This document shows, piece after piece, positions 3,760 to 27,449 of a stretch of DNA of 64,000 nt (position 1 is its first letter; each line of letters opens with the position of its first letter). The notes beneath the pieces are model-generated. The model saw only the letters and a program-made list of their open reading frames with translations. It ran no database searches and was not told the origin of the DNA. A program made the position numbers and the translations under genes. The stretch comes from a virus, in IMG/VR virus record IMGVR_UViG_3300009103_000012, positions 20,395-84,394 of that record. One strand, 5' to 3'.

Positions 3760-4192
3760 ATGTTACGGTTAATAAAAATGTATTCGATGCGATCTTAACA
3801 ATGCCAAATGACGAAATGGTGCAATCATCTGCCTCAAATCCGTTGTCGCCCGTTAAGACAATATTAACAGGCTTACTCTCTGTGTTCTTTTTCGCATCAT
3901 GCAAAGCCTGCATAATTTCCGGGTTGCATTTAGATATCTCCATACTAAGACTTTGTCTATTTGTCTCTCCCACAAATTGTAATGTGTGGAGATTACCTAT
4001 GATTGTTGCGCACTCGGGGGGCTCTATAATTATTGAAAGCTTATTTTCTTCCGCGATAGGCTCACCCTTCTCCTGATCAAAGTCTAGACCCATGAGCTCT
4101 CTCAATCCATCAGACATGATAATATTATCCGGATTATCGAGCACCCGCTCATACTCTTTATTGATGACCCTCATATTATTATCTGTACTCAT
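3734..4192 (-). CDS. Hypothetical protein
   Basis: ORF track gives 3734..4285; more likely start is ATG 4192 (MSTDNN), which has GGAG upstream and avoids a long overlap with the PCD-like gene. Confidence 0.6.
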   Translation of the reverse strand: MSTDNNMRVINKEYERVLDNPDNIIMSDGLRELMGLDFDQEKGEPIAEENKLSIIIEPPECATIIGNLHTLQFVGETNRQSLSMEISKCNPEIMQALHDAKKNTESKPVNIVLTGDNGFEADDCTISSFGIVKIASNTFLLTVTFESEHVLF

Positions 4193-4577
4193 AGCCAAAC
4201 TCTCCAAGCAAACCAACATCATTAAAAATATCGTCACAACGACCTGCATATTCAAGATCAAGTTCAGTAACGGCATTAACATCATGTGTCCAGACTTCTA
4301 CAGTTATTTCCATTCCTTCAATTAGAATATTGGCATGATGACCTGACTGCGCTTCATCTTCGATAAGCTCTTTAAGAAACCAATTACGCATCTGAACATC
4401 GTCAAAAGCAAATTTCTTTATGAGGCGCTCAGGACCCTGAAGTGTTCCCCAAGTACTCTCATCTACTTCAATGGGAATTTCTGGTCCTGATTCTACAACA
4501 AGTCCAAAAACTCCAGAAGAGGGATTGGCTGACTCTTTCTCGCTTAGGTAATTTTTCATTATCGATTGAAGCATCAT
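4179..4577 (-). CDS. Pterin-4-alpha-carbinolamine dehydratase (PCD/PhhB)-like protein
   Basis: W...LIKKFAF...GHHANI...VEVWTHDVNAVTELDLEYA matches the PCD HH..TH..D signature; ~40-aa N-terminal extension. Confidence 0.75.
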   Translation of the reverse strand: MMLQSIMKNYLSEKESANPSSGVFGLVVESGPEIPIEVDESTWGTLQGPERLIKKFAFDDVQMRNWFLKELIEDEAQSGHHANILIEGMEITVEVWTHDVNAVTELDLEYAGRCDDIFNDVGLLGEFGYEYR

Positions 4578-8393: not shown

Positions 8394-9049
8394 GGACCAG
8401 CTGCAGCTGTGGCCCCTACCGCAATGGGAACCTGTTCATCATATTCTTCTTGTTTCGCGGCATGGTCTTCTTTCTTTCTAATATCATGACGTGTGGCAAG
8501 GAGTTCTCCAACTTCATCGGCAATCTCTTCACCATACTTGTCTAATAAAAAGCTTCTAGCTTTAGACATAATCAATTCTTCAATGTCAAAAAACGCGTCA
8601 AAGTTTAAGATTAGCCTTGCGGTCTCGGCAGCGAAACGATCTACATCAATCGTAACTTCATCTGCCTCTCTTAACAGCATCCTCTTAAGAGAATAACTTT
8701 CCTCTTGTACTTGAGCGCTCTTAATTGAGTCAGATTCAATATCAATAAAAATAGCCTGAAGTTGATCATCTAAAGACTTACCGAAACGAACCTCATCTTC
8801 TTCTTCAGCTTTTGGACCCTCGTCCTCTTCAGCCTCGCCTCCACCTTCGTCGTCGCCACCTTCTTCTTCACCACCCTCTTCTTCACCACCTTCTTCTTCA
8901 CCACCGAATGGATCATCTCCACCTTCTTCTTCGCCGCCGGCCTCTTCTTCGCCGCCGCCTTCTTCTTCGCCACCAAATGGGTCGTCCTGCTCCAGCAAAG
9001 TACCTTTGTATGCTTTACGAAAATAATCTTTTAGTTGGTCTCTCTTCAT
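8390..9049 (-). CDS. Highly acidic protein with GGEEE repeats (head/scaffold-like)
   Basis: 219 aa; DDPFGGEEE twice plus repeated GGEEE; GTLLEQ and LKRMLLRE motifs. Confidence 0.6.
   Translation of the reverse strand: MKRDQLKDYFRKAYKGTLLEQDDPFGGEEEGGGEEEAGGEEEGGDDPFGGEEEGGEEEGGEEEGGDDEGGGEAEEDEGPKAEEEDEVRFGKSLDDQLQAIFIDIESDSIKSAQVQEESYSLKRMLLREADEVTIDVDRFAAETARLILNFDAFFDIEELIMSKARSFLLDKYGEEIADEVGELLATRHDIRKKEDHAAKQEEYDEQVPIAVGATAAAGP
8826..8986. repeat. Imperfect ~15-nt tandem repeats encoding GGEEE
   Basis: Repeated cttcttcaccacc / cttcttcgccgcc units on the + strand. Confidence 0.7.
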
Positions 9050-9765
9050 TTTTCGCTCCCTAAGCCGGCTGAAAATAGTTTTGCAAGTTTATCTGCTCTT
9101 TTTACTCGTGCGTTAACAAGCTCCCAATTAAGCTCTTTCATCATCGCGAAAATATACTTTTTACGATCATTAAGATAGTCTCTGAAATATGCTCTTTCCT
9201 GTACTGATAATACAATAATCGGTACAGAGCACATCGGGATCCCTACTTCATTACCATCAATGAATATATTCATATAACGATTTAGAAAGCCATTATACAC
9301 TGTACATACCCATCCATCCCGGGAAGCCATTCCACATGCAATAAAGTCTTTCTGCCAATCTTCAAACGTACCAAAATCACGTGTAAGTCTCATATATGCT
9401 AAACTATCCATTGAAATCTTGGATGTTGGATCTGCTATATTATCGAAATAATAAGCTGAAAGAAATGAGCCATTCATATTGAAGGCCTCCTCCTGCTTAA
9501 TCCCTCTAAACGAAGAGTCTTTAGAATTCGACTCCGATCGGTCAACAGAATCCAGCTTTGCGGAAACGTCATTTAAGGCGTCAACATATTCATGTAAATT
9601 TTCCACATTTGCCTTGATAGCTTTCTCACTAAGCATATCAGTATTAATTTCATAATTCTTTGCTTGGACAACATAAGATTCTGAAAGGGGCTGCTGCGGT
9701 TTCTCTGAGTCCTTATAGAGCGTCTCATTTATCGCTCTCAATATTTCTTTCTCATTTATTGGCAT
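9046..9765 (-). CDS. Fe/Mn superoxide dismutase-fold protein lacking metal ligands
   Basis: DFGTFEDWQKDF, GWV, PIIVL..E.AY..DY..RKKY..LNW SOD C-domain motifs; DVWEHAYY is replaced by SVQERAYF. Confidence 0.7.
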   Translation of the reverse strand: MPINEKEILRAINETLYKDSEKPQQPLSESYVVQAKNYEINTDMLSEKAIKANVENLHEYVDALNDVSAKLDSVDRSESNSKDSSFRGIKQEEAFNMNGSFLSAYYFDNIADPTSKISMDSLAYMRLTRDFGTFEDWQKDFIACGMASRDGWVCTVYNGFLNRYMNIFIDGNEVGIPMCSVPIIVLSVQERAYFRDYLNDRKKYIFAMMKELNWELVNARVKRADKLAKLFSAGLGSEK

Positions 9766-12304: not shown

Positions 12305-12724
12305 CTACGTTCTATAGCGCCTAACTGTGACTCCTGCGGACTTAAGTAGGTCAACTCCAGACATATCCCTATATTCTTCGTCAAAAACCACTTCCGAGAT
12401 CCCGCCATTGATCATTGCTTTCGCACACATCTTGCATGGACTAAGAGTCACATACATGATTTTTCTTCCGCGAATATTATAGTCGCACTTCAGCAATGCG
12501 TTAATCTCAGCATGGATCATTCCTGAATTTCCAGGCTCAGTGGACTCCACTTCATTAGGTCCACCAGAATAATTACCGTTATATCCCACGGCAAGAACCT
12601 GTGTATTCTCCTTTGTCACAATAACGGCACCGACCTGATATCGAGGGTCGTAAGATCTACGAGATATGGAATGGGCAAAGCCCATCCATATCTCATCCCA
12701 CTCTGGTCTACCACCCAAGCTCAT
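12305..12724 (-). CDS. dCMP deaminase
   Basis: RPEWDE.WM, VGAVI, GYNG, HAEINAL, PCKMC zinc deaminase motifs. Confidence 0.9.
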   Translation of the reverse strand: MSLGGRPEWDEIWMGFAHSISRRSYDPRYQVGAVIVTKENTQVLAVGYNGNYSGGPNEVESTEPGNSGMIHAEINALLKCDYNIRGRKIMYVTLSPCKMCAKAMINGGISEVVFDEEYRDMSGVDLLKSAGVTVRRYRT

Positions 12725-13301
12725 TCAAATACCTCTTAAGATTTTCACAACTTTCAACCTCATCACCCCAAGCAGACCAGCCTGGATTCTGATGTCTTGC
12801 AAAAAGCTCCACCTTACTTTGGTCCGGAAACATCTGCTCAATTCGAGCTCGTACTTCATCTGGCTTCTTACTATGCTCTTCGCGGAGGTGCTCAAGATAT
12901 TGTCTTATATTTCTCGCGCCACGGGGACGAGGAATCTTTCCATTCTTCCCAACAAGACAAAGCTCACACTGGGACATTGTATAAAAGCCGGGATTGACTC
13001 GCATTTTATTCCATACAAACCCAACGGTCGCATATTTCAAACCCCAACTTTTTAGAAGCTCGATGCCTTGATCAAGATGAGGATTTGTCACCCACATAAA
13101 TACCAACGCATCCTCATTCATGAGTTTTTGCATTGGAAACTGCTTTAGCTGCTTTAGCTTGAGTGTACCATAATGCTTGCGAGCGCCACCTGTATCACCC
13201 ATTCCAGGCTTACTATGTTGGAGCTGGCCTTTGTAATCCCATGGTGGATCAAGGTAGACAATGTCATACCTCGGACTCGGCTGTGTCAAAAAGTTCTTCA
13301 A
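12708..13301 (-). CDS. MT-A70 family amino (N6-adenine) methyltransferase
   Basis: YDIVYLDPPW, FMWVT, GFVWNK, E.CLVG, EHSKKP, KVELFAR, GWSAWGDE; likely TTG start at 13301 with AAGGAG RBS. Confidence 0.88.
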   Translation of the reverse strand: MKNFLTQPSPRYDIVYLDPPWDYKGQLQHSKPGMGDTGGARKHYGTLKLKQLKQFPMQKLMNEDALVFMWVTNPHLDQGIELLKSWGLKYATVGFVWNKMRVNPGFYTMSQCELCLVGKNGKIPRPRGARNIRQYLEHLREEHSKKPDEVRARIEQMFPDQSKVELFARHQNPGWSAWGDEVESCENLKRYLNELGW

Positions 13302-14118
13302 TGTGTTTCTCCTTAGGTAAAGTAAATCCCGCTGCTTTCTTGTGACCGCCGCCGCCAAATTGCTTTGCAATCTCAGAAACATCAACGCTATCGTGAAAAG
13401 CCCTTAAGCTAACCTTCGTTATTTCATCTTCATGATCCCAATACCAGATCATTGCAAAATCACAATCAGGGGCTAAACGAGCACCAATCTCGGACATCCA
13501 GTGAGATGCATTTACTACCAGCACCTCTTTTCCGCCCATCTTACGAGGTTGCGCTTTTTCACAAACTTTTTTGACAACCGTCTTGCTGTATGCAAGAATG
13601 TAAGATCCGCGCTTACACGCATCGTCAAAAACAGAATCATCTTCGAACTTCTCGAACTCCTCAAATTCAAACGGCACCATATCAAATGCTGCGCTGAACT
13701 CTTTGGAATATTCAAGTTTCCACTCCCAGAGATCGCGATCCTGGATATACTTTATGAACTTTGGCGGCTCTTTCCCTGGATGGAAATATTCCCATGCAAG
13801 CATCGCACCGCTCTTCGTCATATCAAACCGAGTATTTGAGATATCGTGAAGCTCGACCATGGCTGATTTGTGGTGATCAATGATCAGTAGATTTTTAGCT
13901 TTCTTTATCATCTTCTTGATCGTTGACTTACCCCAAGAAAAATCAAGAATTACAACGTTTTTTCCTTTTACATCTGGAGGAGTGGTACCATGCTTACATG
14001 CATAATATTCTGCTCGATTTCCAAGTTGTTTCCAAGCAGAGTAAGCTGCGCCGAAACCGTCTGTGCAGTCTGCATGATAAATCACTACGTTAACCGAATT
14101 TGGGTCCATTGAACTCAT
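13264..14118 (-). CDS. DHH/DHHA1 family phosphoesterase
   Basis: YHADCTDG, ILDFS, IIDHH, SLR, GGGGHKKAAGF. Confidence 0.88.
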   Translation of the reverse strand: MSSMDPNSVNVVIYHADCTDGFGAAYSAWKQLGNRAEYYACKHGTTPPDVKGKNVVILDFSWGKSTIKKMIKKAKNLLIIDHHKSAMVELHDISNTRFDMTKSGAMLAWEYFHPGKEPPKFIKYIQDRDLWEWKLEYSKEFSAAFDMVPFEFEEFEKFEDDSVFDDACKRGSYILAYSKTVVKKVCEKAQPRKMGGKEVLVVNASHWMSEIGARLAPDCDFAMIWYWDHEDEITKVSLRAFHDSVDVSEIAKQFGGGGHKKAAGFTLPKEKHIEELFDTAESEV

Positions 14119-14138
14119 AGTATTCCCGGGATAGATTT

Positions 14139-14579
14139 TTAATTATCATTTTCTTTGTTCGGGTGCACAAAAACATACTTTCCACTTTCATCAACTTCAC
14201 GCCCATAATCGTCTTCCAACCGAACAGGAGAGGAAGAATCAGTACCTGAAGAAATTTCAAAAACAACACTGTCATCCATTGCTGTCAATCGATACGCACA
14301 CCCTGCTTGAACATTTATTATTTCACCAGGTCCCAACGTTACAACTCGAGCAGGATAAAGCACATGATCTAAGAAGTGTCTTTCATCTGCAATTTCAGCA
14401 CTGATCAGACCACTCTGAACATATAAGACTTCTTGTTTCGATCTGTGAAATTTTAAGCTTGTCCGATGACCTGCTCTCAAATGAATTTCTTTGCCGTGGA
14501 AAATACCATTCCACTGGATCTCATAACCCCATGGCTTCTTTGTCGCTGATGATCTTCCTGGCCAAATGCACCTATTCAT
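14139..14579 (-). CDS. Cupin-fold sugar isomerase-like protein (mannose-6-phosphate isomerase type II C-terminal-like)
   Basis: KPWGYE, TSLKFHRSKQEVLYVQSG, EIS, VRLEDDYGR; ATG 14579 overlaps the epimerase stop (TAATG). Confidence 0.75.
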   Translation of the reverse strand: MNRCIWPGRSSATKKPWGYEIQWNGIFHGKEIHLRAGHRTSLKFHRSKQEVLYVQSGLISAEIADERHFLDHVLYPARVVTLGPGEIINVQAGCAYRLTAMDDSVVFEISSGTDSSSPVRLEDDYGREVDESGKYVFVHPNKENDN

Positions 14580-15595
14580 TAATCGATTAGCTCCCACCAT
14601 TGAAGCGTTTTTCTTAGCCCATCCCAAAATTGCTTACGGGGATGCCAGCCAAGATCTTCGCTAATCTTATTTATACAGCCCAATGTATGCTTAACATCAC
14701 CTGCCCTCTCTGGAGCATGAGTAATGGTTAGGTCAGGAAAATACTCTTCCAGCACTCCTAAAATCTGATTATTCGATACCGACGCACCAGTAGCGACATT
14801 ATACATCTGAAACCCTAAATACGCAGGGTGGTCGGCTGCGGCAATCATGGCTTGAGCAACGTCTTTAACATAAATCATATCTCTCGTCTGCTCACCGTCT
14901 CCATCACTTCGAAGAGGGTCACCATTCTTTATACGAGCACACCATGCTGCAACAGCAGTAGAATATGGAGAATCTCCCAGTTGGCCTGGACCGTATACAT
15001 TAAAGAATCTTAACGCAACAAAATCCATCCCGTAGAGTGTAGTATACATCTCAGCGAATTGCTCAACCACAAGCTTTTGTAATCCGTAAGGAGACGTAGG
15101 ATCCTCCGCTTCTTCTTCTGTCGTTGGTAAACTGGCAACCTCCCCGTAACAAGCAGACGATGATGCAAATACAAATCGTTCTATCTTGTTAATCGCGGCG
15201 GACATTAATTCAATTGTCTTCTGAACATTTGTGTGGGTCGTTAATGCTGGATATTTAACAGAATATTCAACTCGTGGATTCGCAGCGAGGTGAAAAATCA
15301 CGTCATAATCGCCGGCGGCGACACGAGACAAAATCTGTCCTGCTGCAAAATCAGCCGTGATAACTAGAAGCTCGCCAGCCAATGGAATACCGGCTTGCTC
15401 ATCATACAGGTGAAGCATTCCTTCTGTAACTGTACGATGTCGCATACCCTCCAAAGTGGAAAGATCACCATTCGAGAGATCATCGACACCCTCAACATAC
15501 CACCCAGCTTCTACAAGCTGACGTGTCACATGGCTTCCTATAAAACCGCAACACCCCGTCACTAGTGCTTTACGTAAACGCACAAAATCCTCCAA
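14579..15595 (-). CDS. NAD-dependent NDP-sugar 4-epimerase (GalE/WbpP-like extended SDR)
   Basis: ALVTGCCGFIGSH, HLAA, FASSS..YG, SPYGLQK (YxxxK), LRFFNVYGPGQ, GDGEQTRD. Confidence 0.88.
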   Translation of the reverse strand: MEDFVRLRKALVTGCCGFIGSHVTRQLVEAGWYVEGVDDLSNGDLSTLEGMRHRTVTEGMLHLYDEQAGIPLAGELLVITADFAAGQILSRVAAGDYDVIFHLAANPRVEYSVKYPALTTHTNVQKTIELMSAAINKIERFVFASSSACYGEVASLPTTEEEAEDPTSPYGLQKLVVEQFAEMYTTLYGMDFVALRFFNVYGPGQLGDSPYSTAVAAWCARIKNGDPLRSDGDGEQTRDMIYVKDVAQAMIAAADHPAYLGFQMYNVATGASVSNNQILGVLEEYFPDLTITHAPERAGDVKHTLGCINKISEDLGWHPRKQFWDGLRKTLQWWELID

Positions 15596-15599
15596 TTCT

Positions 15600-16124
15600 C
15601 TAAATGTTAATTCCTAAAAATATTTTAATCTTTTTGATCTGATTGTTCAAATCCATATCATCAGTTTCTAAAATAAAGCATTCACAGGCTGTCGTTTCTA
15701 CAAAGGCTCTATACAGCTTATCAAGCTTTTCCAGCATTTCTTTCGGCAGGTCATTAGGGTATTGATCATCAATGAGCCCCGAATAATCTTGTCGTAAACA
15801 AATAATAAATTTACCCGCTGCCTCGGAAAAATTCACGTCCATCCAAGATATCGCAGACATATCTGTCTCTCTTTCAAACGCTTCTGCGTATACAAGTTCG
15901 CAAGGGTAAAAGCGATCAAGGATAACTTTCGCGTCGGTTTGCCTCATAAAGTCCATAAGAAATGGACCACCATAACGTAAAAGATTGAGAAAATAATCGG
16001 GTCTATCTAACTCCGTTTCCCACTCTCCAGAATTCTTAAATACAGGAATTCCGGTCTGTCGAGACAACTCAGCAGCAATATTGGATTTTCCGGTCATATC
16101 AGGACCGATGAACGCAATTTTCAT
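15600..16124 (-). CDS. dNMP kinase (thymidylate kinase-like), probable hm-dCMP kinase
   Basis: P-loop GPDMTGKS and ILDRF motif; lies inside the modification operon. Confidence 0.75.
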   Translation of the reverse strand: MKIAFIGPDMTGKSNIAAELSRQTGIPVFKNSGEWETELDRPDYFLNLLRYGGPFLMDFMRQTDAKVILDRFYPCELVYAEAFERETDMSAISWMDVNFSEAAGKFIICLRQDYSGLIDDQYPNDLPKEMLEKLDKLYRAFVETTACECFILETDDMDLNNQIKKIKIFLGINI

Positions 16125-17176
16125 ACCCGATAATCCCCCAGGATGTGCTCGAGAAGATCAGTCCTATATTCAGGCCTTGGATCGATTACAGTCCTCAGAG
16201 CTTCCTCCTGGGCGTCGACAAGCGCCTTCCTCTCATTCGCAGATAAAGTCGCAATCCACTTCACTTTCTTAACAACATCCTCTGTTGTTTCAACAAGCAA
16301 TGACTTGTCGGCTAATCCAACAGGTACAGCATGCTGAAACTCAATTGGAACCAAAGCTGGTACGTTACTCTTAATCGCTTCAAAGAAGCGACCCGTAATA
16401 TTTCCATAGGGAGTATAAGCCGGCTTCGTAATATGAGTCACAGTAATGGAAGAGTTTAGAACACCAAAAATATCCTTGTAGGCTAGACGAGGTCCAAATG
16501 CAACATTCGGTGTCTGCGCAAGCAGCTCCGCTGGGTCTATTCGCTCAGGTGATTTGTTCAGCCAATTTCCGTAAATCATTGTCTGGACACCTTGCTCGCG
16601 CAACGCAGCGCTTGGGCCAGTGTAATACTTCGCAAAAGGCTGCTCACGTTCGTAGTTGTTACCAACGTATGTATAATTGTAAGAATACTCAATGGGCTCA
16701 AAATATCGCTTCATGTAATTGCACCAGGGGATTGTAATCCGCTTTCGTGTTTGGTGCTGGGGTGCTACACATGCATCAGCAAGAATTGCATTCGGCCAAC
16801 GATTCTCTTCTTGCGGTGTCATTTTAAGATCACCGTCTACAATCACTATGGGGATTCCTTGCTCATGGTAATAGTCAAGAACCTGACATTGACGCTGATA
16901 GTCAGACTCTTCTGGATTTTCGCCGCTGTTCTTCCACGTAGGCCATCTCCATTCTACATAAAGAATATCGCCATCAGGGAAGCCGGTGTCATCATACTCT
17001 ACACCAGGGTATTGTTCATCATCCCTCATTTTCTGAAGCTGGATTGGTGTATGGCCACGCTTAAGTAATTCATTGACCCAATCTACACGGTTTCCACGCT
17101 CTCCATCTGGTGTGTTAACAATGCTATTCTTTTCAAGGGGTGTAATAAACCCCCAAAAACTATACAAAACCCTCAT
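16121..17176 (-). CDS. GT-B glycosyltransferase resembling T4 DNA beta-glucosyltransferase
   Basis: 351 aa; YVGNNYERE, VAFGPRL, NITGRFFEAIKSNVPALVPIEF and C-terminal helices parallel T4 BGT as recalled (IYGGSFR..RE, VFTGKI, FITLRVWETMASDAVMLIDEEF). Confidence 0.7.
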   Translation of the reverse strand: MRVLYSFWGFITPLEKNSIVNTPDGERGNRVDWVNELLKRGHTPIQLQKMRDDEQYPGVEYDDTGFPDGDILYVEWRWPTWKNSGENPEESDYQRQCQVLDYYHEQGIPIVIVDGDLKMTPQEENRWPNAILADACVAPQHQTRKRITIPWCNYMKRYFEPIEYSYNYTYVGNNYEREQPFAKYYTGPSAALREQGVQTMIYGNWLNKSPERIDPAELLAQTPNVAFGPRLAYKDIFGVLNSSITVTHITKPAYTPYGNITGRFFEAIKSNVPALVPIEFQHAVPVGLADKSLLVETTEDVVKKVKWIATLSANERKALVDAQEEALRTVIDPRPEYRTDLLEHILGDYRV

Positions 17177-17191
17177 TTTTTCTCCTTAATA

Positions 17192-18322
17192 TTAACCATT
17201 ATATGTCGGGGTGTTACGTTTTTCAAGCTCACGTTTAGCTTTTACAAGTGCTGAACCGATAACTTGATGCATATCGTAGTATTTATACTCCGCCAATCTC
17301 CCACCAAAAATAACTCCCGATTCTTCATGAGCCATAGCAGCATACTTCTTATACATCGATGTATTCTTCTCATTATTGATAGGGTAATAAGGCGTCTTAC
17401 CGCGCTTATACTCATCAGAATACTCACGTGTGATTATCGTATTTGGAATCTTGTTGGCTGTCTCTGGTAAAAAGTGTTTATGCTCAACAATCCGAGTATA
17501 TGGAATTTCAGGATGAGTGTAGTTTATGACCGCATTTCCCTGGAAATCTCCCTCAAGCTCCTCATGCTCAAAGCGAAGTGTCCTATATTCTAGCTCGCCA
17601 AACTGATATCCGAAATACTCATCAATCTTACCAGTGAATACAACTTTGTCAGCAAGGCTGTTCAACTCATCTTTATTCATAAAATAATCAACACCTGTCC
17701 GGACCTCAATTCCTTCCAGCATATTCGCAACCATTTGTGTGTATCCCTCCTTGGGGATCCCCTGATACTTGTCGAAGAAATAGTTTTCTTCAAAAACCAT
17801 ACGAATAGGAAGCCGTTTAATGATGGAGGCGGGTAGCTCTCTTGGGTCACGCTGCCATTGCTTCATCGTGTAACCCTTGATAAAAGTCTCATAGACCTCA
17901 CGCCCCACTTGGGAAAGAATCCAGTCTTCAAGATTATCAGGGTTCTCACATGGGATTCGAACTTCTTCTAGCTTTGCTTCTGCTTCGGCCGGAGTCATGA
18001 CTCCCCACAACTGATGGAGCGTCATCAAATTAATAGGAAACGAGAAAATACGGTCATTATAGCGGATCTTTGGCTTGTTAATATAATTGTTAAAAGTCGC
18101 AAATCGATTAACATAATCCCAAATACGATCATTGCTCGTATGAAAAATATGCGCCCCATACACGTGGACATCTACCCCATTTCGCTTTTCTGAATAAACG
18201 TTTCCAGCGATGTGGTTTCGTTTGTCTATTACAAGACATCGATATCCTGCATCTGTCATTTCTCTGGCAAATGTAGACCCAAATATTCCTGAACCGACAA
18301 TTAGATAATCGTACTTACTCAC
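17192..18322 (-). CDS. glf: UDP-galactopyranose mutase
   Basis: YDYLIVGSG, HVYGAHIFHT, YQGIP, LEYRTLRFE, FQGNAVINY, TRIVEHKHF, PYYPIN, GRLAEYKYYDMHQ. Confidence 0.95.
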   Translation of the reverse strand: MSKYDYLIVGSGIFGSTFAREMTDAGYRCLVIDKRNHIAGNVYSEKRNGVDVHVYGAHIFHTSNDRIWDYVNRFATFNNYINKPKIRYNDRIFSFPINLMTLHQLWGVMTPAEAEAKLEEVRIPCENPDNLEDWILSQVGREVYETFIKGYTMKQWQRDPRELPASIIKRLPIRMVFEENYFFDKYQGIPKEGYTQMVANMLEGIEVRTGVDYFMNKDELNSLADKVVFTGKIDEYFGYQFGELEYRTLRFEHEELEGDFQGNAVINYTHPEIPYTRIVEHKHFLPETANKIPNTIITREYSDEYKRGKTPYYPINNEKNTSMYKKYAAMAHEESGVIFGGRLAEYKYYDMHQVIGSALVKAKRELEKRNTPTYNG

Positions 18323-19350
18323 TTTGCACCCCTTGTATTAAATCGATAACCTTCAAATTTCAAATTTTCCAACATTTTTCTTGCTTCACTTCTTGTCGAG
18401 ATTTTTCTTATTCTATCAGCAGCTAACACTACCGCAAAATCATGCCAGGTCAATGCGTCATTAGTGGGATATGCAAACACACGACGAAACGCTTGGTGGA
18501 TAGCTTCTACCGAAGTGGCGATAGAGATGTCTTTTTCGACCTCCATCATCTTTTCTATCCAATAAGAAAGTTCATCACTTGAAGCACATCCTAACGGTGG
18601 CATCTGTCCATACCTTTTCCATAGCTCAAACTGTGATCTATTAACATTTGATGTCTGTAGAATTCTCTCTGCCATCTCAAAGTGGCGCTCATATATGTGT
18701 AATGAATTGCTGGTATGAGTGTAGGTTCCCAACCCAACGCCAAGTTCATTAGCAAGTAATTCTTGAAATAGCGTAAATGCTGGAATATCATATGCAATAC
18801 CGAATATCACATCTGAACTTCTCATATTCACAACCTGATGAAGTTTGCCGTCTCTAATAAAAAATTGAAGTGCCAATGTACAAGGAACGTCTAGCTTTGC
18901 GTCAATACTATCATCAGGCACCCTAAGATGCATTACCGCTCGACGGGAATCTGGGTCTCTAGTAAGCTCATCAATAATATACTCCCATTGATTGAACCTC
19001 CCCTGAGCAATCTTGGGGTGTCGTTGAAATAGTCTTGCGCCATAAGCAGAGTTTGCTGTTACTCCATCATCTGAAATATTTCTCCAAAAGTTTGAATATT
19101 TCGATATCCACGCTGTCTCATTATTTCCAGAAAGATACCACACAAGCTCAGCAACCATATAAGAAATACTAAACTTTCGTCCTGCAACGTATGGAATTCT
19201 GTCTCTGGGATTTAAGATCGTAAATGAAGCGCCAAGTATTTCCTTGACTCTTTGCCCACGAGGGGCTGCTTCAAATGTTGGACTTTCGTAAACATTTCGA
19301 ACTAGCGAAATGTAGCAGTGCGTAAATGATTGATAGGTTCCAATATGCAT
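18319..19350 (-). CDS. Thymidylate synthase-family dCMP-modifying enzyme (dCMP hydroxymethylase-like)
   Basis: ELVWYLSG, NSAYG, DSRRA, DVPCT (Cys157), MRSSDVIFGIAYD (Asp188 where dUMP-specific TS has Asn), SLHIYERH. Confidence 0.8.
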   Translation of the reverse strand: MHIGTYQSFTHCYISLVRNVYESPTFEAAPRGQRVKEILGASFTILNPRDRIPYVAGRKFSISYMVAELVWYLSGNNETAWISKYSNFWRNISDDGVTANSAYGARLFQRHPKIAQGRFNQWEYIIDELTRDPDSRRAVMHLRVPDDSIDAKLDVPCTLALQFFIRDGKLHQVVNMRSSDVIFGIAYDIPAFTLFQELLANELGVGLGTYTHTSNSLHIYERHFEMAERILQTSNVNRSQFELWKRYGQMPPLGCASSDELSYWIEKMMEVEKDISIATSVEAIHQAFRRVFAYPTNDALTWHDFAVVLAADRIRKISTRSEARKMLENLKFEGYRFNTRGAK

Positions 19351-19403: not shown

Positions 19404-22400
19404 TCATATACGAAGAAGCTTGACTTTACTCATAGAAGTTTGGTATCCGAAGTCATTTTTCTTCACTTCTGCGCAACACAAACTGTAAAGTGGGAGATCT
19501 GTCTCGCCATCCCAACCCCAACAAAACATTCGAAAGTTTTTACCCTCCAGCCCAGTCGCGGTGACCAAAAGATATGGACGCTTGTTTTTTGTGAGCTTAG
19601 GCTTAATGTCAGACACGAGGAACCAATACACATCATGACCCCTGGTATCGATTTCATCAATACACGCGATGTCTTTCTTTGCCAAGCGCTCCTGAACTTC
19701 TTCGCTAATAAGAGTTGATGCGTTAAAAGACCCAAAATGCTTTACACTATTTTCTACCATCTCCCTGCGAGACCAATGGCCCGATCCTTGCGTCTCAAGT
19801 AGGGCCTCCTTGAAGTTATTTCTGCCACGTTCTGGATCACGCTTTGTCCACTTCTTGATGTCGTTCTGTCGTCCGATAACGACTTCATGCATGTGCTTAT
19901 AGCTCTCGAACGTCTTACCGGGGCCGACTAGATCCATAGATTCGAAGCCGCGGATTTTGATCAAAGCCTCAAGAGCGCGCTTGTTGAACTTAGAATGTTT
20001 CCACTTTCCATCATCGGTCCATAGAAGATCATCGATGCCTTGATATGGTCGATTTGCAACTAGCTCATCGATTGCAGACTCGCCAATACCCTTACAAGAT
20101 AAGAGCGAAGGCATGAACTTTTTACCCTCAAGGATTGTCCACTTCTTTGTGGCATAATTGATATCTAGAGGCGCAACGCGATATCCTAAAGCCTTAACCT
20201 CAGCAAAAGCCTTTGCTCGCTTCTTGTCGTTACCTGACATCGCCTCAAGATAAGCACACAGCCATTCTTCTTCAAAATATGTCAAGAGCCAAGCGCAGTA
20301 ATACGAGTCAATCGCGTAACATACTGCGTGAGACTTATTGAAGCCATAACCTGCAAAGAACAAAATCTTTTCGTATAAGTCATCAGCCAATTGTCGATCT
20401 ACTCCATTCTTCACAGAGCCTGCAACAAACTGCTCCTTGATCGATCTAGCTTTGGCAAGACTCTCTGCTGCTTCTGACGCTTTCCGCTTCATAATACTCC
20501 GACGTACGGTGTCTGTTTCTTCTTCGGGGAAACCCGCCACCACAGAGCAAAGCTTCATGATTTGCTCCTGAAAGACAATTAGACCGTAGGTTTCTTCAAG
20601 AACTTCCTTGATTAACGGATGGCCATAATCGATCTTCTCAGGGTTGTTCTTGGCCTTGATATACAATCTATCGACCTTCGCCGTGAGTGGGCCTGGACGA
20701 TAGATGGAAGTCAGCGTAGCAATATCAACGATGCTCTTAGGCTTCGCCTTTTTGAACAAGTTCTGAGCACCACGGCCGGCCAGCTGAAAGATGCCAGCCC
20801 AGCGGCCTTTTCCGTAAACGTGATCGTATACGTGCTGATCGTCCATGTCAAGTACTTTCGGGTCCATATTGGCGTTAAACCATTCATACACCTGAGCGAA
20901 TGTTGGGTCTTCGATACCCTCCTTTCGCTGTAGGATGAGCTCGATGGTACGCTGGATAATTCGAAGCGTTTCAAGACCAAGTAGATCAAACTTAATCCAG
21001 CCGAAAGTCTCAAGATGCTTATAGTTCATGCCCTCAGCCCACGGGGTCTGTAGCTCACCACGTGCCTTGATAAGCGGCATCCTTTCCGCAATATCCTCTG
21101 CAACGATACAACCACCAGCATGGCGACCTAAGGCCTTGTTCTGCTTGAACAGAACCTGGATTGGAGCAGCAACTTCTGGATGAGCCTCGATGAATGCTCT
21201 GAACGTCTTCGAGTGAGCTAGCGCATCTTCGTAAAGCAGCACAAATAGATTCTTATCAGTACCCTGCTTGAATACTGCGCGCTTTACATCTTCTTCGACC
21301 GGCGCTAGCGCCTTATTCACTTCGTTAAATGGAATACCATAAAATCGTGAAATATCTTTGACAAGAGACTTAAGCTTGAATGTATTGTAATTAGAGATCG
21401 GGACAATATTCTCATCGCCCCACTTGTCTTTCATCATATTGATGAGTAGGTCTCGGTCGCCAACATCAGTATCGATGTCTGGTGCACCTTCACGAGAAGG
21501 ATTCAAGAAGCGACCGAACATAAGATCATATTCAAATGGGTCAACGTCTGTTAGCTTAAGAACATAAGCAACAAGACTACCAGCAGCTGAGCCGCGACCG
21601 GGACCAACAAGCATGGCTTGTTTGGCAATCTTAATAATCGCTTCCATTGTCAAAAAGTATCGAGAGAAATTCTTGTCTTTAATAATCTTCAACTCATGCT
21701 TTATTCGCTCGATATATTTTGGGTCACCCGCCAATCCTCGCTCAACAAGACCCTTTTTACATGCCTCAAGCAGAGCCTTATCGTCTGTCATACCCTCAGG
21801 TACAACATAAGAAGGAAGTTTCATCGTCCTATCAGGTGCAATTGTGCTGATCTCTTCATGGACAATCTGATGAGGTCGCTCAATAGCATTCTTCACAATC
21901 TGGTCATCATAAAATGACATACCATCTGCACTTTCTAGATATGTATCCCACAATTGCTGAGCATTCTTAGGGTATAACTCACACTTCAAGTCCTCTTTAG
22001 TTTGGGGTAGTTTTGACGGATCAAACTCACGATAATTTAGCCAGCCAAGCTTCTTGTAAAGTTCACGCTCACGCCAATGCTCTGGTCGAGCGTAATGAGA
22101 GTCAGTCGTTACAACTAATTTATCTTGTAAGCTATTTTTATTCGCGAACTCGATGATTGCTCGATTAACAAGGTGCTGGGCAGGGAGCTTATTGAATTGA
22201 AGCTCTAGATGAACATCATTAATTCCAACGGCGTCTACCAAACCTTGGTAAGCGTTACCCACGCCAGTCATTACACTACGGTGAAAAGACGGATCATCCA
22301 TCAGTTTATAGCTAAGATCATCAAACTCAACGTTCTGAGCATGCCGAAAGACCTCATAAGCAATTGGTCCGCCAATACAAGCGGTAGAAACCATCAGGTG

Positions 22401-23024
22401 GCCACCCTCGGCGGCCTCCCTTAACATCTTATAGTCGATTCGTGGAAACCTATAGAAACCCTCTCTATACCCCCTACTCACAAGATGGAACAAGCGCTGG
22501 AGACCTACGCTTGTCTTAGGAAGAACGACCAAGTGATGGCGTCTCTTAATCGGATCATAGAATTTTGAAGACTTTGTTTCTTCTTCATTTTCAATAGTGA
22601 GGCCGGCATCTTCTTTGCCGATATCTACAATCTCATCATCCCCATCCACTATTGCAGTTAGAGGTGTAGCGATTGCTTCTCTCTGCTCACGAAGTCGAAG
22701 CAAAGCCTCTTTATCACCCTTCTTCGCAGCTTGCCGAATCTCCATATCAAGCTTCCATGCTTCAAGGTCAGGATGTACATACATCTCACAGCCTGGAACG
22801 AACTTAAATTTACCGCCGCGCTTTTGTACTTTTTCAGCATGAAGGAATGCATGGCCAAAAGAATTCATGTGACCATGATTGGTGAGACACCAACCATCCA
22901 TGCCGTTTTCGATTATAAAATCAATATGTTCTTGAGGATACCCAAGGCCATCGAATGTACTAAACCCATCATGTGAATGAAGGGAAATAAACTTACTAGG
23001 GGGAGTAAGCAAAGTCTTTCTCAT
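19404..23024 (-). CDS. dnaE: DNA polymerase III alpha subunit (family C)
   Basis: PHP domain (LHSH, GCEMY, TTDSHY), GPGRGSAAGSLVAY, PDIDTD, GRHAGG, KFDLLGL, YGFNKSHA, C-terminal OB fold. Confidence 0.96.
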   Translation of the reverse strand: MRKTLLTPPSKFISLHSHDGFSTFDGLGYPQEHIDFIIENGMDGWCLTNHGHMNSFGHAFLHAEKVQKRGGKFKFVPGCEMYVHPDLEAWKLDMEIRQAAKKGDKEALLRLREQREAIATPLTAIVDGDDEIVDIGKEDAGLTIENEEETKSSKFYDPIKRRHHLVVLPKTSVGLQRLFHLVSRGYREGFYRFPRIDYKMLREAAEGGHLMVSTACIGGPIAYEVFRHAQNVEFDDLSYKLMDDPSFHRSVMTGVGNAYQGLVDAVGINDVHLELQFNKLPAQHLVNRAIIEFANKNSLQDKLVVTTDSHYARPEHWRERELYKKLGWLNYREFDPSKLPQTKEDLKCELYPKNAQQLWDTYLESADGMSFYDDQIVKNAIERPHQIVHEEISTIAPDRTMKLPSYVVPEGMTDDKALLEACKKGLVERGLAGDPKYIERIKHELKIIKDKNFSRYFLTMEAIIKIAKQAMLVGPGRGSAAGSLVAYVLKLTDVDPFEYDLMFGRFLNPSREGAPDIDTDVGDRDLLINMMKDKWGDENIVPISNYNTFKLKSLVKDISRFYGIPFNEVNKALAPVEEDVKRAVFKQGTDKNLFVLLYEDALAHSKTFRAFIEAHPEVAAPIQVLFKQNKALGRHAGGCIVAEDIAERMPLIKARGELQTPWAEGMNYKHLETFGWIKFDLLGLETLRIIQRTIELILQRKEGIEDPTFAQVYEWFNANMDPKVLDMDDQHVYDHVYGKGRWAGIFQLAGRGAQNLFKKAKPKSIVDIATLTSIYRPGPLTAKVDRLYIKAKNNPEKIDYGHPLIKEVLEETYGLIVFQEQIMKLCSVVAGFPEEETDTVRRSIMKRKASEAAESLAKARSIKEQFVAGSVKNGVDRQLADDLYEKILFFAGYGFNKSHAVCYAIDSYYCAWLLTYFEEEWLCAYLEAMSGNDKKRAKAFAEVKALGYRVAPLDINYATKKWTILEGKKFMPSLLSCKGIGESAIDELVANRPYQGIDDLLWTDDGKWKHSKFNKRALEALIKIRGFESMDLVGPGKTFESYKHMHEVVIGRQNDIKKWTKRDPERGRNNFKEALLETQGSGHWSRREMVENSVKHFGSFNASTLISEEVQERLAKKDIACIDEIDTRGHDVYWFLVSDIKPKLTKNKRPYLLVTATGLEGKNFRMFCWGWDGETDLPLYSLCCAEVKKNDFGYQTSMSKVKLLRI

Positions 23025-25291: not shown

Positions 25292-25999
25292 TTAAAGCTG
25301 ACGATATTCTCGATATGAAGCCAAAGTTTCAGGCCAAATTTCTTCAGCTATATGAAGACATGCTTTTGCAACTTGCTGAATTTCCCACTGCGCTCCCTCA
25401 TGTACACGTAGCTCTATAAACTTAAATAAATTGTTTAAATTTACTGTGCCATAATATTCTGAATAAAGATTTTGGGGAAGCACTCCGCGGGCTTGCTCTC
25501 TACAAATACCGTTCTTCATAAGGTCATTATAGAGGCGCAAAGATAACTTGTGATGTTGCTCTATACAATGAGCTGCTGTCAATCCCATTTCAGGATCTGA
25601 AAGATCTGGAATTAATACCGGATCGATCTGCCCGCAAATATTTGAGGCTTGACGATTTGACTTGTGTTGGGTCCTAAAGCTCTTTGGCTCATAAAATCTG
25701 ATATCTACATCCGTATACCTTCTAGATATCTCGTTATAAGACCAAGTCCTGTGGCGATGATGCTGGCTACGTACAAAAAGAGGCACAATAAAACGGAAAG
25801 TAATAACGTTATGCTCAAGAGTTGATGTATGCTTATGCCTGATTAGATAGCGAATGAGCTTTTTATCTTTCCCATCGAGCTCTTCCTTCACTTTTCCGAA
25901 TGAAACCCTTGCACTGTTCACCACTGTTAAGTCTGATCCCATATGTTCAATATATTCCACTGCACCAATGGCATCGTCATAAAGCTCAATTCTTTTCAC
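25292..25999 (-). CDS. thyX: Flavin-dependent thymidylate synthase
   Basis: VVNSARVSF, HTSTLEH, RHRTWSYNEISRRY, EQARGVLP, AQWEIQ. Confidence 0.95.
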   Translation of the reverse strand: MKRIELYDDAIGAVEYIEHMGSDLTVVNSARVSFGKVKEELDGKDKKLIRYLIRHKHTSTLEHNVITFRFIVPLFVRSQHHRHRTWSYNEISRRYTDVDIRFYEPKSFRTQHKSNRQASNICGQIDPVLIPDLSDPEMGLTAAHCIEQHHKLSLRLYNDLMKNGICREQARGVLPQNLYSEYYGTVNLNNLFKFIELRVHEGAQWEIQQVAKACLHIAEEIWPETLASYREYRQL

Positions 26000-26431
26000 T
26001 TAATACTCCATGTCTTTTCGGATTTCTTCTTCGCTTTTCTCTCTTCGGTCTTGGTACTCTTTCTTTATATTAAGAATTGGTACTGCCTCGCCATCGCCGT
26101 CGATCCTTACAAACGTCATTTCAACATCACATACAAGCTTTTGTGATCCATTGACGACACTATGTCTTCGAGCTTCAAGCTTCACAGTTATCGAACATGT
26201 TCCGATTCTTAATACATCACCGTAAATTTTTATTATCTGTCCCGGTCGAACTGGCCTCTGGAAAACCACTTGAGAAATACTTTTTGTAACTAATCGAGGT
26301 GAGCCACATACTTGGGCTGTAAAAGCTCCTGCAGCTTCATCAAGCCATGAAAGCATAACTCCACCAAAAAGGTTTCCATGAACACCGATATTTTGACCTT
26401 TACATATATGCGTCGAGATGAGCTGCATCAT
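26000..26431 (-). CDS. Hotdog-fold acyl-CoA thioesterase (YciA-like)
   Basis: HGNLFGGVMLSWLDEAA, F.RPV..G, GTCSITV, MTFVRID. Confidence 0.85.
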   Translation of the reverse strand: MMQLISTHICKGQNIGVHGNLFGGVMLSWLDEAAGAFTAQVCGSPRLVTKSISQVVFQRPVRPGQIIKIYGDVLRIGTCSITVKLEARRHSVVNGSQKLVCDVEMTFVRIDGDGEAVPILNIKKEYQDRREKSEEEIRKDMEY

Positions 26432-26438
26432 ATTTTAT

Positions 26439-27449
26439 TTATTGGACAAATTTACAAAGTTGTAAAGCTACTCTATAGGGATCGCATCCTGATGATGGGC
26501 GACGATCTTCAAGGTACCCACGCCACTCTTTCTCTATAACACTATTGGGTATCCTCACTGAAGTGTCTCTAGCGGCGACGCCATAAGTAAATCTATCTAA
26601 TGAAGCCGTCTCAAATCCCCCAGTTAGACGAAGACCATTCTCAGCCCCATATTCAGATATCGACTCGTGATGTCGAGCCTCCATATTAGAAATAATTCGC
26701 TGGAATTCTTCTTCATTACCATCTTCTCTCATTTTCTTAGTAGAGAAATTAGTATGACACCCAGAGCCATTCCAACCAGGGTGGGGCTTGGGATGCCAAT
26801 CGACACCAAGCTCAAGGTCTTCTGTCATCAGCTCCAGAAGATACCTACTAACCCACAACGCATCGGCGGCAGTTATCGGATTCTCTGCGAAACATTGATA
26901 TTCCCATTGTCCTGGGGAGACCTCCGCATTATAGCCAACCACCCTAACTCCGACCTGATTACAAAATGAAGCATGCTCACGAATAAGCTTCCGAAACTTC
27001 ACGCTACCTCCTGAAGAGCAATAGTAACGCGAATCCTTGATCGGCTCTCCGCTATCAGGCCAGAACACATTCTTATCATTCGAAGTGATGAAATATTCCT
27101 GTTCGAAACCAACCCACATTTCTTGAGCACCTTCCGTGCTCGCTACTGCTTCTCGTAACTTCGCCCTGTAATTTGACGGATGAGGTGTTCGCTCAGCATT
27201 AGGCATACATACTTCACATAAAGCAACATAGTGATTGTCAGCGACTTGAAACATTGCTTTTGGTTGCAGGACTCTTTCAGAGTCGCCAGTGTCTGCTTGC
27301 CCGGTCGAAGAGCCATCAAAGTTCCACTCAGGAACATCTAATTGAACTTCTCCAGCTTCATTAGGCTGAAGGACAGTCGATTTTGTTTTCGACCTAATGG
27401 AGGGATGCTCAAAACCATCCACCCAAATATAGTCTAAATGAACTAACAT
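26439..27449 (-). CDS. glnII: Glutamine synthetase type II
   Basis: YIWVDG, RSKTK, WNFDGSSTGQA, GFEQEY, NAEVSPGQWEYQ, HPKP..WNGSGCHTNFST, GYLEDRRPSS..DPY; ~336 aa is GSII length. Confidence 0.9.
   Translation of the reverse strand: MLVHLDYIWVDGFEHPSIRSKTKSTVLQPNEAGEVQLDVPEWNFDGSSTGQADTGDSERVLQPKAMFQVADNHYVALCEVCMPNAERTPHPSNYRAKLREAVASTEGAQEMWVGFEQEYFITSNDKNVFWPDSGEPIKDSRYYCSSGGSVKFRKLIREHASFCNQVGVRVVGYNAEVSPGQWEYQCFAENPITAADALWVSRYLLELMTEDLELGVDWHPKPHPGWNGSGCHTNFSTKKMREDGNEEEFQRIISNMEARHHESISEYGAENGLRLTGGFETASLDRFTYGVAARDTSVRIPNSVIEKEWRGYLEDRRPSSGCDPYRVALQLCKFVQ

Follow-up and report, generated by a model that had tools for sequence, protein, structure and literature searches.

The region considered here occupies positions 12,305 to 19,350 of a 64,000-nucleotide stretch of viral DNA (hereafter the window), which spans positions 20,395 to 84,394 of the 84.4-kb IMG/VR virus record IMGVR_UViG_3300009103_000012. 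It contains nine co-directional genes, all on the minus strand and tightly packed behind dnaE, the gene for the DNA polymerase III alpha subunit. In order from dnaE, they encode a ThyA-fold homologue of thymidylate synthase (TS), a UDP-galactopyranose mutase (Glf), a glycosyltransferase (GT) of 351 amino acids (aa) with a GT-B fold, a P-loop kinase, a sugar epimerase of the short-chain dehydrogenase/reductase (SDR) family, a small cupin, a DHH/DHHA1 protein, an MT-A70 methyltransferase and a dCMP deaminase (Table 1). A first, sequence-only reading of the window had described these genes as one tightly coupled operon, and all of them are present in that arrangement, their junctions consisting of overlaps of 1–4 nucleotides (nt) or gaps of 4–20 nt. 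The TS/Glf and GT/kinase junctions are 4-nt overlaps, gaps of 15 and 4 nt separate Glf from the GT and the kinase from the epimerase, respectively, and epimerase and cupin overlap by 1 nt if the latter starts at the ATG at 14579. We read the whole as a module by which an uncultured jumbo phage of marine origin hypermodifies cytosine in the T4 manner; the modified base would be galactofuranosyl-5-hydroxymethylcytosine, and we assign this explanation a rough probability of 0.55. As judged from the genes, it is highly probable that the module serves a T4-type DNA modification composed of 5-hydroxymethylcytosine (5hmC) plus a sugar, with a transferase related to T4 beta-glucosyltransferase (BGT) and phage-encoded donor synthesis; that the sugar on the base would be galactofuranose, the simplest reading of the position of Glf, is about an even bet.

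Table 1. Genes of the block behind dnaE and of the neighbouring nucleotide metabolism, in window coordinates.
Feature	Coordinates	Strand	Family and domain matches
DNA polymerase III alpha (dnaE), 1206 aa, heads the gene block	19404..23024	-	PF07733, PF17657, PHP, HHH_6 domains
TS homologue, predicted dCMP 5-hydroxymethylase, 343 aa	18319..19350	-	PF00303 1e-35
UDP-galactopyranose mutase (Glf), 376 aa, GTG start overlapping the TS stop	17192..18322	-	PF03275 2e-79; TIGR00031
GT-B glycosyltransferase, remote T4 BGT homologue, predicted DNA 5hmC glycosyltransferase, 351 aa	16121..17176	-	
P-loop nucleotide kinase, predicted 5-hydroxymethyl-dCMP kinase, 174 aa	15600..16124	-	PHROG thymidylate kinase 5e-6
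SDR-family NDP-sugar 4-epimerase, 338 aa	14579..15595	-	PF01370 1e-49
Small cupin, 146 aa from ATG 14579; open reading frame opens at TTG 14627	14139..14627	-	PHROG 7851 4.7e-14
DHH/DHHA1 phosphoesterase, 284 aa	13264..14118	-	PF02272 2.6e-11; PF01368 2.3e-5; PHROG 4771 1.2e-78
MT-A70 family DNA (adenine) methyltransferase, start codon uncertain	12708..13385	-	PF05063 1e-25; PHROG 359 4.6e-64
dCMP deaminase, 139 aa	12305..12724	-	PF00383 3e-22; PHROG 174 9e-49
MazG-like nucleotide pyrophosphohydrolase, candidate dCTPase, 137 aa	23975..24388	-	PHROG 12184 8e-15; PF01503 2.5e-4
ThyX flavin-dependent thymidylate synthase, complete	25292..25999	-	PF02511 1.3e-48

The TS homologue carries the cytosine part of this explanation. 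Its best match in the PDB is the CMP hydroxymethylase MilA (3e-51), with the T4 dCMP hydroxymethylase further off (7e-19). Aligned with E. coli ThyA and T4 gp42, it retains Glu58, Arg126, Cys146, Arg166, Ser167, Asp169, His207 and Tyr209, and shows the exchanges L143D and N177D (E. coli ThyA numbering). The latter is the dCMP-type Asp that the sequence-only reading had recognized: it sits in an AYD motif that lines up with E. coli FN(177)I and with T4 ND, is kept in all relatives, and proves to be part of a full hydroxymethylase-type signature. An LDVPC motif has an Asp three residues ahead of the catalytic Cys, an arrangement shared with T4 and MilA, and the motifs RSSD and DPDSRR supply Ser167 and Arg126, where MilA has Ala and Lys; the same signature motifs recur in every close relative possessing the gene. 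N177D has been related to a cytosine substrate, and L143D/E to a hydroxymethyl rather than a methyl product (PMC13326640); Ser and Arg instead of MilA Ala176 and Lys133 go with deoxyribose substrates (MilA structure paper, PMC5175136). From this residue signature and from its nearest solved relatives, the TS homologue reads as a dCMP 5-hydroxymethylase, and on the strength of the signature 5-methyl-dCMP, CMP-directed (MilA-like) and dUMP-directed readings of it were rejected. Furthermore, ThyX and the dCMP deaminase cover the supply of dTMP, so that the ThyA-like gene is unneeded for thymidylate and free for cytosine chemistry. A different product would be 5-hydroxy-dCMP, as in the phages RB69, DLP3 and RL38J1, in which case the sugar would be ether-linked directly at C5. 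Rhizobium phage RL38J1, the sole published Glf-bearing phage with known chemistry, does use 5-hydroxycytosine, but D169N is diagnostic for these newly found 5-hydroxy-dCMP synthases (PMC13326640), and Asp169 is retained by the window enzyme as well as by each of the 45 TS homologues from related loci; with a hydroxymethylase as the nearest solved relative besides, we find a 5-hydroxy product barely credible.

The transferase had been likened to T4 BGT, and this likeness is upheld both by its model and by the profile of its family, which comprises at least 171 metagenomic homologues. The AlphaFold model (31 homologues used, predicted local distance difference test (pLDDT) 91.1) displays a two-Rossmann fold that is assigned to GT-B with confidence, and T4 BGT is nominally its top structural match. 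Across all PDB sequences, the family profile matches T4 BGT as the sole family (E 4.3e-5, residues 227-334 against BGT 234-340), and hhalign of the family against T4 BGT gives E 9e-5 with a probability of 59%; the single-sequence search of the PDB returned chance-level matches only, the family profile being required. The sequence homology is remote and limited to the C-terminal domain, where Arg263 and Glu266, invariant in 31 family members, align with BGT Arg269 and Glu272, which we take to be contacts to UDP. In the N-terminal domain, Asp114 and Asp116 are invariant and follow a strand at residues 110-113; they are possible counterparts of the BGT catalytic base Asp100. On these comparisons, the GT is a remote BGT relative outside the Pfam family as defined. 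Comparison of the GT family by hhalign with the BGT of Lactobacillus phage ATCCB, the transferase of Actinomycetia phage DSL-LC01 and a 358-aa Glf neighbour of Aeromonas phage 25 gave no significant match, and tblastn of the GT against 50,697 cultured-phage records found no relative.

The surroundings of the GT were compared over 47 loci of related viral contigs, obtained by scanning IMG/VR with the GT family. The kinase adjoins the GT in all of them, dnaE lies nearby in 46, and a cytosine-type TS is encoded in 43 (of the loci lacking it, four in number, three are truncated) and an orthologous epimerase in 42, so that GT, kinase, TS(Asp) and SDR epimerase make up a conserved core beside dnaE. 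Glf is found near the GT in 18 loci, namely those of the 17 nearest relatives, whose GTs are at least 74% identical, and the distant locus L046 (GT 38% identical). The synteny that the sequence-only reading had made a touchstone of its proposal is therefore general for the epimerase, which keeps company with TS and GT, and restricted to these 18 loci for Glf. Among the remaining genes, the dCMP deaminase occurs in most relatives, the DHH/DHHA1 gene in many, a MazG-like gene upstream of dnaE likewise in many, and MT-A70 only in the closest ones. Two peculiarities of single loci may be mentioned. The dnaE of two distant relatives is broken up into two open reading frames (L027:524-5272, L031:4496-9466) with a frame of 311-319 aa between or overlapping them, which could be an inserted mobile element, intein or homing endonuclease; and a distant relative without TS within 10 kb encodes, beside the kinase, a protein of 740 aa that contains a GH5 cellulase domain (L043:11913-14135).

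The identity of Glf is supported by the TIGR00031 equivalog (NCBI UDP-galactopyranose mutase), with a score of 368.8 bits that exceeds the cut-off of 303.75. The protein also matches PF03275 and PF13450, contains the Rossmann motif for binding flavin adenine dinucleotide (FAD) and shares 52% identity with the Glf of E. coli K-12, including conserved FAD and active-site blocks. It is thus a predicted UDP-galactopyranose mutase, with UDP-galactopyranose (UDP-Galp) and UDP-galactofuranose (UDP-Galf) as its predicted substrate pair; bifunctional UDP-sugar mutases exist, and the substrate of such an enzyme is not fixed by sequence alone. Campylobacter has a mutase capable of using GalNAc (N-acetylgalactosamine) sugars, which two residues of the active site probably set apart from E. 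coli Glf. In alignment with E. coli GalE, the epimerase shows the Ser/Tyr/Lys triad and lacks the Asp-Glu pair of 4,6-dehydratases, and its best PDB matches are 4-epimerases of UDP-N-acetylglucosamine (UDP-GlcNAc) and UDP-glucose (6dnt, 4zrm, 6wjb, WbgU and WbpP). By these features it is a 4-epimerase-like SDR, whose substrate is presumably a glucose or GlcNAc sugar. The 84-kb record holds no second SDR, nucleotidyltransferase or other transferase, and neither the operon nor the record holds an aminotransferase or an acetyltransferase; in view of this lack of further sugar genes, the pathway must begin from a host UDP-sugar.

The labels of kinase and cupin, on the other hand, stand for a family and a fold and not for specific functions, also where the sequence-only reading spoke of a dNMP kinase. 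The kinase gives weak family matches only, and a profile search leads to SP-beta YorR and the deoxynucleoside-kinase family (1.7e-7). The cupin has no match in Pfam, no sequence match in the PDB and marginal profile matches; its AlphaFold model (pLDDT 91.8) is a cupin barrel, and the Foldseek matches listed are mostly generic cupin-fold proteins. Its invariant positions comprise Lys, Lys, Glu, Cys, Tyr, Glu and Asp, a conserved His metal site is absent, and its neighbours in the ESM Atlas are viral Cupin_2 proteins, mannose-6-phosphate isomerase-like or lyxose isomerase-like proteins; it is possibly a sugar(-nucleotide) isomerase- or epimerase-like protein. The gene of about 195 aa found at the cupin position in distant relatives was considered as a counterpart and rejected, as it encodes a thymidine kinase. 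The DHH/DHHA1 protein is a candidate nucleotide or oligonucleotide phosphohydrolase. Besides, ThyX, the dCMP deaminase and the MazG-like pyrophosphatase support a T4-like nucleotide logic, which they round off; the genes of the first and the last lie upstream of dnaE. Directly upstream of thyX (26000-27449) are a glutamine-synthetase-fold protein of 336 aa and a 4HBT thioesterase, which may have a link to nucleotide or base modification.

From the gene identities, signature residues, folds and synteny described so far, we infer each enzymatic step of the following pathway. Before replication, the ThyA-fold enzyme would convert dCMP into 5-hydroxymethyl-dCMP, which the P-loop kinase would phosphorylate; host NDP kinase would finish the triphosphate, and the dnaE replisome of the phage would incorporate 5-hydroxymethyl-dCTP. 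The MazG-like pyrophosphatase probably clears dCTP, and the dCMP deaminase together with ThyX would provide dTMP. After replication, the BGT-related GT-B enzyme would place a sugar on the 5-hydroxymethyl group in the DNA, in beta linkage if it inverts like BGT. The donor would derive from host UDP-glucose, turned by the SDR 4-epimerase into UDP-Galp and, through ring contraction by Glf, into UDP-Galf; given this donor route, galactofuranosyl-5-hydroxymethylcytosine is the most likely base. Its probable role would be protection against restriction, type IV nucleases and CRISPR nucleases. Of the original proposal of 5hmC bearing galactofuranose, the glycosylation of 5hmC is thus well supported, and the furanose on the base is plausible rather than established.

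The loci differ in the sugar-supply genes that accompany the core. In L046, Glf again adjoins kinase and GT, with a dehydratase/UXS-like SDR (L046:7379-8371) directly upstream of Glf, a pairing that hints at a pentofuranose or a 6-deoxyhexofuranose there. Other relatives with the same core possess a second GalE-like or a dehydratase/UXS-like SDR instead, and in the Glf-less L028 the GT-kinase-TS core is surrounded by genes for a dehydratase/UXS-like SDR, a flavin oxidoreductase of the DAO type and a short-chain dehydrogenase (L028:3106-4128, L028:7724-9474). The gene contents suggest that a core for 5hmC glycosylation is conserved while the cassettes for the donor sugar can be exchanged, and with its sugar supply varying around a fixed core the module has the look of a natural means of diversifying the glycans on DNA. 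At slightly less than even odds, we propose that the virion DNA of this clade of marine jumbo phages carries galactofuranosyl-5hmC, a base not yet described, and that the BGT-related GT family would be a donor-switching scaffold, which, over the wider clade, varied sugar cassettes (Glf, dehydratase/UXS-like SDRs, or flavin oxidoreductase plus short-chain dehydrogenase) would turn into the source of a family of hmC glycans.

Several observations weigh against galactofuranose on the base. Glf is missing from 29 of the 47 loci, which yet retain the same GT, kinase, TS and epimerase, so that the GT family in general needs no furanose donor. Two GT sites, 222 and 331, separate Glf-bearing from Glf-less loci when the independent locus L046 is included, but 0-4 sites of this kind result if any one Glf-less sequence is put in instead, and the two are therefore not beyond chance. 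The GT itself has no match in Pfam (E up to 0.01), PHROG or NCBIfam, leaving PF09198 unmatched, which the ATCCB transferase, for comparison, matches at 9e-22; the known galactofuranosyltransferases, moreover, are GT-A enzymes. Among the 80 best-matching viral Glf loci, 71 are without TS or this GT within 10 kb, and many adjoin an SDR instead. The epimerase reaches 157.4 bits with TIGR01179 (GalE), below the cut-off of 262.3, and its nearest solved relatives include UDP-GlcNAc/GalNAc (N-acetylgalactosamine) 4-epimerases. Near-complete close relatives carry, about 115 kb away, a separate glycan island with GT2, GT10, GT11, DegT aminotransferases, a sulfotransferase and further SDRs, which could be a sink for UDP-Galf. 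Finally, the CheckV completeness of the record is 26%, which puts the phage genome probably near 300 kb and leaves 74% of it unseen.

The frequent absence of Glf beside the same GT, the chance-level residue signal, the GT2-rich islands and the unseen share of the genome all favour a scheme in which 5hmC is glycosylated with a pyranose donor (UDP-Gal, UDP-GalNAc or UDP-Glc), whereas Glf serves an unseen second transferase adding an outer sugar, or the glycan island. Multi-sugar chains are built by T-even phages, as in the gentiobiose of T2 and T6. RL38J1 builds them as well (PMC13326640). This scheme has to face the position of Glf, wedged between TS and GT at near-zero spacing, and its occurrence beside a DNA-type GT in three unrelated cassettes, those of L046, ATCCB and DSL-LC01. 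The glycan island, for its part, keeps its own sugar-nucleotide genes beside its own transferases; in five long Glf-less records GT2 genes are present in all and Glf nowhere, and one Glf-bearing record is without GT2 genes, so that Glf is uncoupled from the GT2 glycan island. A pyranose on the base is thus, in our view, unlikely, if still deserving attention. As to the island itself, L134, a 281-kb relative, contains one of about 13 kb (G001:C1:35000-52000), in which GT2 genes and fucosyltransferase-like genes of GT10 and GT11 accompany two genes for DegT aminotransferases, one for a sulfotransferase and SDR genes of the GDP-sugar type; its content suggests that marine jumbo phages synthesize glycans for the virion or the host surface.

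A sugar of another kind would result if the base bore a different furanose, either N-acetylgalactofuranose, made from UDP-GlcNAc by a GlcNAc/GalNAc 4-epimerase and a bifunctional mutase, or a product reshaped by the cupin. WbgU, WbpP and further UDP-GlcNAc 4-epimerases among the solved relatives point that way, and so does the epimerase itself, in which the gate position of E. coli GalE (Tyr299) is taken by Thr, a small residue that may admit GalNAc-type sugars. The same can be said of the conserved cupin with its acid/base-type invariant set, encoded after the epimerase, and of the varied sugar cassettes of the relatives, including the SDR upstream of the L046 Glf; 5hmC bearing an N-acetylhexosamine (HexNAc) is known from other phage pathways (bioRxiv 10.1101/2023.12.21.572611). 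Glf, however, exceeds the cut-off of the UDP-Galp mutase equivalog at half-identity to the E. coli enzyme, and the second SDR, aminotransferase and acetyltransferase sought in operon and record are missing, which leaves another furanose distinctly unlikely. It is also conceivable that Glf, epimerase and GT act off the DNA, glycosylating virion proteins or host envelope glycans, and are merely located in an early nucleotide-metabolism block. The viral Glf genes lying away from TS, often beside an SDR, would suit this, together with the clear investment of these phages in glycan synthesis and a GT without Pfam assignment. Yet the only sequence-level PDB relative of the GT is a DNA glucosyltransferase, its linkage to the kinase (47/47) and to the cytosine-type TS (43/47) is tight, and the order polymerase-hydroxymethylase-transferase mirrors T4; we therefore rate an off-DNA function as highly improbable.

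Broadly, sugar-coated cytosines are a classic phage answer to restriction enzymes, and shape which defences work against a phage. If galactofuranosyl-5hmC is indeed the product, a hexofuranose on 5hmC would constitute a new DNA base, carrying the 2026 furanosyl-cytosine finding from 5-hydroxycytosine to the T4-type 5hmC route, and the GT would be a DNA glycosyltransferase taking a UDP-furanose donor, of use in the chemical labelling of 5hmC. Uncultured giant phages of marine and fresh waters commonly carry the module. The window stretch itself recurs in marine and seawater metagenome DNA runs of three studies, no RNA run being among the runs listed, and megablast of the whole operon against the 50,697 cultured-phage records gave no match. 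Promoter and terminator scans of the region produced counts not above shuffled controls; a sigma-70-like near-consensus promoter (TTGAAA, 17 nt, TATAAT; 11/12 matches) at 17198-17226 on the minus strand, in the 3' end of glf and just upstream of the GT start, belongs to a regional promoter total that does not exceed those controls. Elsewhere in the window, amid otherwise unassignable genes, are a protein whose C-terminal domain is of the Fe/Mn superoxide dismutase type (9046-9765) and a homologue of pterin-4a-carbinolamine dehydratase (4179-4577).

Among known systems, the T-even glucosyl-5hmC pathway (T4 gp42, gp1, gp56, Cd and the alpha- and beta-glucosyltransferases) resembles the module in its ThyA-fold dCMP hydroxymethylase with the same signature residues, in its nucleotide kinase, dCMP deaminase and NTP pyrophosphatase, and in a BGT-related GT-B enzyme of equal length. 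Gene order is shared as well, polymerase, hydroxymethylase and transferase following one another in T4 (43-imm-42-b-gt) and in the window, with Glf inserted in the latter. On the other hand, the window GT is only a remote relative without the PF09198 match, the polymerase is of the dnaE type, and kinase and pyrophosphatase are not orthologues of gp1 and gp56. Unlike T4, moreover, the window phage encodes its own donor-sugar enzymes, a 4-epimerase and Glf, so that the sugar is probably not glucose.

Closest in its sugar chemistry is RL38J1 (Pootjesviridae), whose DNA bears galactose and glucose on 5-hydroxycytosine and whose annotated phage Glf has been proposed to make UDP-galactofuranose (PMC13326640, NAR, July 2026). 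The statement of the sequence-only reading that no Glf-supplied galactofuranosyl base was known has accordingly been overtaken by this proposal for galactosyl-5-hydroxycytosine. RL38J1 and the window both combine a phage Glf (46% identical) and a TS homologue with a nucleotide kinase and GT-B enzymes, a set that puts a galactose-type sugar on cytosine C5 in the former and is predicted to do so in the latter. They differ in that the D169N TS of RL38J1 makes 5-hydroxycytosine with an ether linkage, whereas the Asp169 of the window predicts 5hmC, in that the transferases are not detectably related, and in that the window has Glf inside the operon as well as an epimerase. RB69 and DLP3, which carry arabinofuranosyl-5-hydroxycytosine (PMC13326640), likewise place a furanose on a C5-oxygenated cytosine from a UDP-furanose donor made by phage enzymes; their sugar, however, is a pentose derived from ribulose-5-phosphate, the acceptor is 5-hydroxycytosine, and the donor route is another one, without a mutase. 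In the TET/5mYOX clusters of metaviromes, epimerase-paired GTs glycosylate 5hmC only with the co-expressed epimerase, yielding hexose-, HexNAc- and hexuronic acid-5hmC (Hex-, HexNAc- and HexA-5hmC), and the report does not mention mutases or furanoses (bioRxiv 10.1101/2023.12.21.572611). The pairing of a GT with a sugar epimerase is common to these clusters and the window, although the 5hmC of the former is made after replication by a methyltransferase and a dioxygenase.

Two cultured phages unite an hm-type TS, a transferase and Glf in a replication block as the window does. In ATCCB, three adjacent genes encode an hm-type TS, a true PF09198 BGT and Glf, which the paper describing the phage does not discuss; in DSL-LC01, one block comprises kinase, hm-type TS and deaminase, followed by GT, Glf, an unknown gene and MazG. 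Their cassettes have no epimerase, and their transferases are not orthologous to the window GT, from which it follows that the cassette has been assembled more than once. Being cultured, both phages make the idea testable now, and full-text literature searches found no paper tying Glf or galactofuranose to 5-hydroxymethylcytosine. A further Glf-linked modification cassette is possible in T4-like Aeromonas phages, where two genes without assignment, each encoding about 350 aa, come after Glf (in Aeromonas phage 25, L052, at 150841-154112 of the record); the annotators of phage 25 noted that Glf and the gene directly downstream are not conserved in the sister phage 44RR2.8t. Set beside all these systems, the module of the window is not a categorically new one: it would extend known phage cytosine glycosylation.

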